Origin: Escherichia coli O157:H7
Lineage (GTDB): Bacteria > Pseudomonadota > Gammaproteobacteria > Enterobacterales > Enterobacteriaceae
Direction: 5' to 3' (one strand)
Assembly: GCF_013167455.1 (NCBI RefSeq)
Contig: NZ_CP038331.1
Length of the DNA stretch: 6,675 nt
Part shown: piece by piece, positions 2,644-2,760 of the stretch
Numbering within the stretch: the stretch's first letter is position 1
Layout: every line of letters starts with the position of its first letter
Program-made: the position numbers and the translations under genes
Notes under the pieces: generated by a model
The model's input: the letters and a program-made list of their open reading frames with translations, nothing else
Database searches by the model: none
Told to the model about the DNA's origin: nothing

Positions 2644-2653
2644 CTGCCTGTAA

Positions 2654-2760
2654 ACGAAAAAACCCGCCTTGTGGCGGGTCCTTCCGTCCGATCAGAAGTC
2701 TTCGACCTCTTCTAATCGGCGGTGGTAACTGGCTTGGAGGAGCACAGTCACCAAAACTGT
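2654..2760 (-). ncRNA. RNAI: RNA I antisense copy-number control RNA (about 107 nt)
   Basis: Minus-strand 5' end ACAGTTTTGGTGACTG at 2760 (compare pMB1 RNA I 5' ACAGTATTTGG). Ends in a terminator hairpin ACCCGCC/GGCGGGT (2662-2668 / 2673-2679, read on the minus strand) followed by a U-run encoded by the A-run at 2655-2661. Fully complementary to the 5' part of RNA II. Confidence 0.75.

Follow-up and report, generated by a model that had tools for sequence, protein, structure and literature searches.

The segment 2650-2760 of the 6,675-nucleotide stretch of Escherichia coli O157:H7 DNA analysed here (the window) is best read as the place where two opposed transcripts of a ColE1-family replicon overlap, the RNA II primer precursor on the plus strand and the RNA I antisense repressor on the minus strand. 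We put the probability of this reading, which includes a control region of mosaic make-up and no expected cross-repression with pMB1 or ColE1, at about 0.85.

To judge from its sequence, the window is the complete small colicin D plasmid pColD157, because its length, gene content, gene order and numbering agree with those of the GenBank record Y10412. That record has the same 6675 bp and the order cda, cdi, cdl, ori, rom, mbeA-D, cer, and nothing substantive differs. The plasmid was published by Hofinger, Karch and Schmidt in 1998 (J Clin Microbiol 36:24). Its genes lie as follows:

25-2118: cda (open reading frame and annotation agree)
2115-2378: cdi (open reading frame and annotation agree)
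2448-2594: cdl (open reading frame and annotation agree)
3641-3832, minus strand: rom/rop, 63 amino acids with a GTG start, 61 of 63 residues as in ColE1 Rom, annotated as 'Rop family' in the near-identical pDEC4E-3
about 3900-5811: mbeC/A/B/D (open reading frames and annotation agree)

No Rep gene was found among the open reading frames of the window, which comprise cda, cdi, cdl, rom, mbeA-D and a few hypothetical ones. A 2025 paper (PMC11882453) refers to 'bases 6389 to 6675 of pColD-157 (Y10412.1)' and gives T for position 6621 and C for position 6628; both bases are present in the window, in agreement with the Y10412 numbering given there.

In PLSDB, 37 records cover at least 80% of the window. 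The full-length ones, 99.2-99.8% identical among the matches listed, are E. coli plasmids of about 6.7 kb from cattle and humans (O157, O111, O103 and O26), and their annotation names colicin D, an immunity protein, a lysis protein, Rop, MobC and MbeA/B/D. From pDEC4E-3 the window differs by 17 substitutions. The exact 121-nt RNA I region recurs without any change in 31 PLSDB records, every one of the pColD157 type, and was not found in PLSDB outside such records; the same RNA I is present in about 100 complete E. coli genomes. The next-best PLSDB matches to this region are 91.7%, 87.5%, 86% and 85.5% identical, after which the values fall to 76%. In a recent survey of O157 (PMC10758439), pColD157-like plasmids are entered with an unclassified incompatibility type.

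The elements of the copy-control region between 2603 and 3225 are listed below.

2603-2625, plus strand: terminator-like hairpin at the end of the colicin D lysis gene, with a stem of 9-10 bp (AAAGGATCT/AGATCCTTT) followed by a T-run
2614-2642, plus strand: putative RNA II (primer) promoter, placed by homology, with TTGAGA at 2614-2619, a spacer of 17 nt and TAATCT at 2637-2642
2650-3225, plus strand: RNA II primer precursor of about 576 nt, placed by alignment to ColE1, pMB1, p15A and CloDF13
2653-2760, minus strand: RNA I antisense repressor of about 108 nt, placed by Rfam RF00106 and by its fold
2654-2687, minus strand: SL3 of RNA I, which doubles as terminator, with the loop ACAA at 2669-2672 followed by a U-run (folds)
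2688-2719, minus strand: SL2 of RNA I, with an 11-bp stem and the 10-nt loop AGGUCGAAGA at 2699-2708 (folds)
2723-2753, minus strand: SL1, the 5' hairpin of RNA I, with the loop CCUCCA at 2735-2740 (folds)
2768-2796, minus strand: putative RNA I promoter, placed by homology to pMB1 and p15A, with the -35 box TTGAAG (complement of 2791-2796), a spacer of 17 nt and the -10 box CTAAAC (complement of 2768-2773)
2802-2822, plus strand: RNA II beta segment, predicted partner of alpha (2723-2741) in MFE folds of 2650-2830 and 2650-2860

The terminator-like hairpin of the lysis gene overlaps the -35 box of the RNA II promoter. The bases of that promoter (2614-2642) are the same in pMB1 and ColE1 throughout and, by homology, the convergent RNA II and RNA I promoters occupy canonical ColE1-family positions. 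A generic sigma-70 scan of 2560-2860 called no promoter for either RNA; the two were placed by homology because the ColE1 -10 boxes, TAATCT and CTAAAC, are too weak for the criteria of such a scan. RNA II probably starts at G2650, and its transition to DNA probably falls in the A-run at 3221-3225. RNA I would begin with the A at 2760, by homology to the ACAGU of pMB1, and end after the U-run at about 2653. Conserved G-runs are found in RNA II at 2913-2918 and 3203-3208. The G-run element GAACGGGGGGTTC at 2909-2921 and the sequence CAGGGGGGCGGAGCCTATGGAAAAA at 3201-3225 both align with ColE1, pMB1, p15A and CloDF13, and the origin motif TATGGAAAAA ends at 3225.

RNA I itself matches the Rfam RNAI model (RF00106) over 2654-2759 on the minus strand with 54.7 bits (gathering score 47, E 3e-8). 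Folding of RNA I, which the earlier note had proposed as a check, gave three hairpins at -55.9 kcal/mol for the reverse complement of 2650-2761; the mean of shuffled sequences was -30.4 (z -7.4), and none of 200 shuffles was as stable. The SL1 loop CCUCCA is common to the window, p15A, pF2_18C_Col and pOSAK1. The SL2 loop AGGUCGAAGA has no kinship to UUGGUAGCU, the loop of pMB1, ColE1 and p15A, and this SL2 was found only in a small clade made up of pFHI_NMBU_10_02, pSCU-171-3, pSCU-478-2, pS19_141-f, pEA5_2 and pRHB39-C22_5. With RNA I, the promoters, the downstream origin elements and Rom all present and Rep absent, the replicon is, as far as its sequence tells, an antisense-controlled member of the ColE1 family.

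Members of this family depend for replication on RNA polymerase, RNase H and Pol I of the host and are inhibited by RNA I. Loops of RNA I and RNA II kiss in a complex that Rom stabilises, and the duplex then spreads so that no primer is formed (PMC8683028, PMC9458437). By homology to the ColE1 mechanism, the RNA I loops of pColD157 would form kissing contacts with their complements in nascent RNA II, Rom would stabilise the kissing complex, and full duplex would then start at the RNA I 5' tail. The duplex would stop the alpha-beta refolding of RNA II into the form that makes a persistent RNA-DNA hybrid at the origin; priming would be blocked, and copy number would be set in this way. Specificity would reside in the loop and stem sequences of RNA I.

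The pairing region is a genuine trough of similarity to pMB1. The origin sequences used for pMB1 (607 nt) and p15A (564 nt) were checked and agree with database records at 100%; ColE1, CloDF13 and pColK-K235 were taken by accession, and segments were compared in a MAFFT alignment of the window with these five origins and relatives of the 121-nt region. SL2 was compared by separate folds of each RNA I instead of column-wise covariation counts, because MAFFT misaligned the CloDF13 beta segment and the non-homologous SL2 arms. Identity to pMB1 is distributed as follows:

2614-2653: RNA II promoter and leader, 95%
2654-2759: RNA I-coding region, 57% (SL3 50%, SL2 50%, SL1 region 65%)
2760-2815: RNA I promoter region, 46%
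2816-3125: downstream origin, 79%
3126-3180: 55-bp block, 13%, in effect missing from pMB1
3181-3230: origin-proximal end, 86%

The earlier note had claimed that the RNA I stem-loops differ from those of pMB1 within an otherwise similar layout, and the comparison bears this out: none of the three loops is common to the two, and the value for RNA I is well below those for the promoter with its leader and for the downstream origin. The first RNA II loop that it quoted is present (CCCGCC at 2663-2668, TTGT at 2669-2672 and GGCGGG at 2673-2678), and its pMB1 counterpart, CCACCGCTACCAGCGGTGG, is also correct. The promoter layout is pMB1-like as described, with the RNA II promoter in the 95% region and with the G-runs and the motif TATGGAAAAA in both, and rom, called almost identical, is so by the residue count given above. 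The further statement that the rest of the origin is conserved is correct at the level of the family and fails for the RNA I promoter region and the 55-bp block. What did not hold up is the choice of pMB1 as yardstick: the nearest origins are those of colicin K plasmid variants, together with p15A for SL1 and the RNA I promoter patch and CloDF13 for the 55-bp block.

Seven relatives of the 121-nt region were fetched and compared with the window origin. These comparisons show the pColD157 origin to be a mosaic from the ColE1-family pool; its divergence is no drift of a single lineage away from a pMB1-like ancestor. A colicin K plasmid lineage with a CloDF13-like block is the source of SL3, SL2 and the greater part of the origin, whereas the loop of SL1, the promoter of RNA I and beta are of the p15A type. 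Two segments stand out:

2735-2815, strand not applicable: p15A-like mosaic patch of 81 bp, delimited by step-wise identity to pFHI_NMBU_10_02 and about 88% identical to p15A
3126-3180, plus strand: 55-bp origin block, 87% identical to CloDF13 and 95% to pFHI_NMBU_10_02

The colicin K-type plasmids pFHI_NMBU_10_02 and pSCU-171-3 (PLSDB) share with the window the RNA II promoter, SL3 with a single stem mismatch (loop and upper stem are the same; 28/29 over 2654-2682), an identical SL2 and, at 96-100%, the greater part of the downstream origin together with the 55-bp block. They differ from it in the 81-bp patch (SL1 loop CUGCGAU instead of CCUCCA, RNA I promoter and beta) and carry a colicin K operon where the window has colicin D. 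With pFHI_NMBU_10_02 the protein accessions of Rop and MobC are shared as well. Against this plasmid, the window shows one mismatch in 2614-2734 (121 nt; RNA II promoter, SL3 and SL2), identity of about 60% in 2735-2815 (60-62% in the 2750 and 2800 bins) and 96-100% in most origin bins outside the patch. These sharp blocks of identity therefore point to segment exchange and not to gradual drift.

The patch takes in the loop of SL1, both the 5' tail and the promoter of RNA I, and nearly all of beta in RNA II, and is about 88% identical to p15A and pF2_18C_Col (for p15A, the 88% was measured over 2760-2815). p15A (pACYC origin) has the SL1 loop CCUCCA on a stem one nucleotide apart from that of the window, and an RNA I promoter region and beta at 88%. 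It differs in its SL2 loop (UUGGUAGCU versus AGGUCGAAGA), in its SL3 loop (CUGCAA versus ACAA) and in its downstream origin (68%), and has neither the 55-bp block nor rom. Identity of RNA I loops to those of a known ColE1-family replicon, which the earlier note had named as evidence against its claim, is found in part: SL1 is that of p15A (one loop of three), and SL2 and SL3 are different. pColK-K235 is alike in the rom-mob-cer backbone (3350-6150, about 99%) and the RNA II promoter (100%), but unlike in the origin module 2650-3350 (26-88%), in RNA I (56%) and in all loops. CloDF13 shares the block 3126-3180 (87%) and the downstream origin (82%), but none of the three RNA I loops, with an RNA I identity of 56% and another mobilisation system. 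The block is missing from pMB1, ColE1, p15A and pColK-K235.

In folds of RNA II longer than about 180 nt, a long-range helix in the MFE structure, 2723-2741 (GGUAACUGGCUUGGAGGAG) with 2802-2822 (ACUCCUCUAAAUCAGUUACC), displaces stem-loop III, the complement of RNA I SL1. An RNAalifold consensus of 14 plasmids recovers the same alpha-beta helix. Alpha-beta pairing reportedly entered the classical ColE1 model with Masukata and Tomizawa in 1986, and the predicted helix would correspond to that pairing, the refolding that RNA I binding prevents. Among plasmids, the variable loop of SL1 covaries with beta (GGAGGAG/CUCCUC, GCAGAGCG/CGCUCUGC, GGUGGA/UCCACC and UUCGCAGAG/CUCUGCGAA). The alpha of pFHI_NMBU_10_02 pairs with the window beta at -12.9, versus -26.6 for the cognate pair; the window alpha pairs with the beta of pFHI_NMBU_10_02 at -25.9, versus -27.0 with its own beta, and does nearly as well there because of G-U pairing. 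The energies discriminate one way only and are therefore no stronger than suggestive of a co-adapted module. The patch 2735-2815 may span a functional unit, for which the support is partial.

Pairing between heterologous RNA I loops and the RNA II loops of the window was estimated by crude loop-duplex energies (kcal/mol):

Cognate (window) RNA I: SL1 -16.6, SL2 -23.9, SL3 -11.9
pMB1 RNA I: SL1 -5.1, SL2 -4.3, SL3 -3.5
ColE1 RNA I: SL1 -5.1, SL2 -4.3, SL3 -1.0
CloDF13 RNA I: SL1 -4.6, SL2 +0.4, SL3 -1.9
p15A RNA I: SL1 -16.6, SL2 -4.3, SL3 -8.9
pFHI-type RNA I: SL1 -4.4, SL2 -23.9, SL3 -11.9
pSCU-478-2-type RNA I: SL1 -11.2, SL2 -23.9, SL3 -11.5

By these estimates, the likely cross-reactors are natural relatives rather than laboratory vectors. 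With ColE1, as with pMB1, no loop of three is common, so that repression by the RNA I of either is not expected and pColD157 should have an incompatibility specificity of its own. CloDF13 likewise has no loop in common with the window, despite the 55-bp block in both, and p15A has one, the identical SL1. Compatible ColE1 origins can arise through changes in the loops, and the origins of ColE1, p15A, CloDF13 and RSF1030 belong to separate incompatibility groups (PMC9458437). ColE1 and p15A have an identical SL2 loop and are the standard compatible pair (PMC9458437); in this pair, one common loop of three does not make incompatibility. On the other hand, Chaillou et al. 2022 (PMC9458437) found loop divergence insufficient to predict compatibility and interference to be asymmetric in some cases. 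No in vivo compatibility test of the pColD157 RNA I was found in the literature. Compatibility of the pColD157 replicon with pMB1 and ColE1 is a prediction from sequence that we consider quite likely to be correct. We would also expect compatibility with CloDF13 and, with less assurance, with p15A, but incompatibility or interference with origins of the pFHI and pSCU-478-2 types.

Natural co-residence bears on this prediction. E. coli O26 02E060 (GCF_027925845.1) carries pO26_02E060_4, a pColD157-type plasmid with an RNA I identical to that of the window, together with the Rop/MbeA plasmid pO26_02E060_3, in which RNA I is 92% identical to that of ColE1 and has the SL2 loop and SL3 hairpin of ColE1. 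O157:H7 FRIK804 has a 6.73-kb colicin D plasmid and a plasmid 100% identical to pOSAK1 of Sakai (PMC7430833); the RNA I of pOSAK1 combines the SL1 hairpin of p15A, with its loop as in the window, a p15A-like SL2 and a ColE1-like SL3. The SL1 loop of pMB1 occurs in neither partner (pO26_02E060_3 or the pOSAK1-type plasmid). These cases support a distinct specificity for the pColD157 RNA I, the assemblies being snapshots and neither partner being pMB1. They are likewise an argument that a common SL1 is by itself no bar to co-residence, as snapshots and not as assays of stability. Co-residents were sought at accessions adjoining pColD157-type records, among which AP027200 alone was informative. 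Other candidates were not counted as ColE1-type co-residents: pO111_4 and pO26_10153_4 each encode a replication initiation protein, which ColE1-type replicons lack, and AP027189 and AP027183 are large virulence plasmids.

The Rfam score of RNA I is low beside the 60-97 of most other members tested, and could be taken to mean that the gene has decayed and is non-functional, with copy number controlled otherwise. We regard this as extremely improbable: the fold is stronger than those of ColE1, pMB1 and p15A RNA I (-40 to -47 kcal/mol), promoter hexamers, terminator and rom are intact, no Rep is encoded, and the region is unchanged in the PLSDB records and recurs in the complete genomes counted above. 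It is also improbable, though not to the same degree, that cross-reaction with pMB1/ColE1 RNA I persists and that the replicon is functionally of the same incompatibility group. Similarity does extend to the RNA II leader and the base of SL3, the stem flank GGUAACUGGCU is conserved in both, and divergent loops do not guarantee compatibility (PMC9458437). Yet no loop is common, RNA I is only 57% identical, the predicted heterologous pairing is weak, p15A is a standard compatible partner of ColE1 in spite of having its SL2 loop, and in 02E060 a pColD157-type plasmid lives beside one with ColE1's SL2 loop and SL3 hairpin. Partial and possibly one-directional interference with p15A-type replicons, by way of the p15A-like SL1 and 5' tail, is somewhat easier to envisage, although we still think it unlikely. 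SL1 and the 5' tail are the part of RNA I that nucleates the stable duplex and masks RNA II alpha; the tail is similar to that of p15A, the whole patch is p15A-like, and the p15A SL1 duplex with the window RNA II reaches the cognate value, with a partial one for SL3. However, SL2 is unrelated (-4.3 versus -23.9), a pOSAK1-identical plasmid with p15A's SL1 hairpin accompanies the colicin D plasmid in FRIK804 (PMC7430833), and one loop of three does not render ColE1 and p15A incompatible.

The same weighing applies to how the region came about. It might have diverged in place from a pMB1- or ColK-like ancestor, through point mutations and compensatory changes selected for a new specificity and not through recombination. 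Compensatory stem changes do occur across the family (both sides have changed in 11 of the 39 RNAalifold consensus pairs), and one-base loop changes can alter incompatibility (PMC9458437). This route nevertheless seems improbable to us in view of the sharp steps relative to pFHI_NMBU_10_02, from one mismatch in 121 nt to about 60% over 81 nt and back to 96-100%, of the 88% identity of the divergent patch to p15A, and of the contrast, relative to pColK-K235, between 26-88% over 2650-3350 and about 99% over 3350-6150. An antisense-controlled ColE1-family origin assembled from exchanged segments is the reading that we prefer.

That the sequences of RNA I loops and stems matter for ColE1-family incompatibility has been textbook knowledge from the early 1980s on, and many RNA I variants are known from natural ColE1-like plasmids. 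The loop divergence of pColD157 is ordinary and well-understood variation within the ColE1 family, of a kind already known. The one mildly new point is the clean mosaic, in which an alpha-beta/SL1 module of the p15A type is set into an origin of the colicin K-plasmid type with a CloDF13-like block. We offer only tentatively, and with more doubt than belief, the idea that new RNA I specificities in the ColE1 family often arise by swapping of the alpha-beta module and not by point mutation. The unit of such swaps may consist of the loop of SL1 with the promoter of RNA I and the beta segment of RNA II, and recombination at two invariant flanks, GGTAACTGGCT and GTTACCA(A/G)TGGCTGCTGCCAGTGG (GTTACCAATGG junction), may bring about its exchange. 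If this were true, pColD157 would be a natural chimera, with a p15A-type SL1 on a colicin K-plasmid-type SL2/SL3 origin, and its sister plasmid pFHI_NMBU_10_02, which has another colicin, would differ from it in just this module. For multi-plasmid work, the pColD157 origin is a candidate for an extra compatible origin of the ColE1 type, and its mosaic is a clean and small example of control-region modules exchanged between replicons.

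Over the rom-mob-cer backbone (window 3350-6150), the colicin K plasmid pColK-K235 shares about 99% identity with pColD157, but it differs from it both in the origin module (2650-3350) and in the colicin operon. On this ground, pColD157 looks, at the level of sequence comparison, like a colicin K-type backbone combined with another origin module and with the operon for colicin D. The features of the window discussed here are as follows:

2379-2435: long interrupted inverted repeat, between the immunity and lysis genes
3126-3180: 55-bp origin block, delimited by sequence comparison and flanked by the conserved motifs GGGTTTCGCC and GTCAGGGGGG
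6034-6181: cer-like multimer-resolution site, recognized by similarity to ColE1 cer
6191-6436, minus strand: conserved ORF for the hypothetical protein WP_000820629.1, between cer and the cda promoter
6621-6655: two overlapping, palindromic LexA boxes, TACTGTACATAAAACCAGTGGTTTTATGTACAGT, upstream of cda

In the origin comparison, the 55-bp block is missing in all four of pMB1, ColE1, p15A and pColK-K235. Its counterparts in CloDF13 and in the colicin K plasmid pFHI_NMBU_10_02, one of the nearest origin relatives, are 87% and 95% identical to it, respectively. The block adds to the length of RNA II, inferred to be about 576 nt.

At the far end of the window, positions 6034-6180 share 90% identity with ColE1 cer; GGTGCGTACAATAAGGGGTTATGTTAAAT, at 6152-6180, is the XerC/XerD core, and its ColE1 equivalent is GGTGCGTACAATTAAGGGATTATGGTAAAT. 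The ORF next to cer is overlapped by a weak DNA match to CloDF13 (71%, 6355-6497). The LexA boxes of ColE1 and pColK are 91-94% like the pair upstream of cda, and the cda promoter has served as an SOS reporter (PMC11882453). Within the colicin operon, the inverted repeat consists of the outer arms TCATGAGTGA/TCACTCATGA and inner arms of 15 nt with 93% complementarity. By analogy with other colicin operons, it probably acts as a terminator or attenuator within the operon.

Compared over its full length with pDEC4E-3 (NZ_CP038400.1), a modern assembly of this plasmid, the window shows 17 substitutions and no indels. None of these substitutions falls in 2107-3467, which spans the immunity gene, the lysis gene and the complete origin, and nine of them lie in the mob region (3998-4764). 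They could represent either real variation or 1998-era sequencing errors.

RNA I molecules with the window type of middle hairpin (SL2), in the window (2654-2759) and in another compared sequence, L004 (1510-1616), score just 53-55 bits against Rfam RF00106; the gathering threshold is 47 bits, and other family members tested typically reach 60-97 bits. Slightly more divergent members of this SL2-type clade would escape an RF00106 search at the gathering threshold. ColE1-type replicons require no Rep protein. In ColE1-type origins, RefSeq labels ORFs of about 50 aa directly downstream of the RNA I region "replication initiation protein" (ColE1 784-942, 1614-1775 in the compared sequence L010, and several PLSDB matches), and RNA I annotation is absent from the ColE1-type records bearing them. 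The label looks like an annotation artefact.

Relatives about 86% identical to the window RNA I region (2645-2765) include the small plasmids pSCU-478-2 and pS19_141-f, which have the same SL2 loop as the window. Relatives of similar identity occur on E. coli chromosomes, at 59 places among 5426 genomes, for example in E. coli 55989 (NC_011748.1, 3342398-3342517), and within plasmids of 108-133 kb (for example, CP027641.1 and NZ_CP129254.1). These chromosomal and large-plasmid copies are presumably integrated or co-integrated ColE1-type origins.
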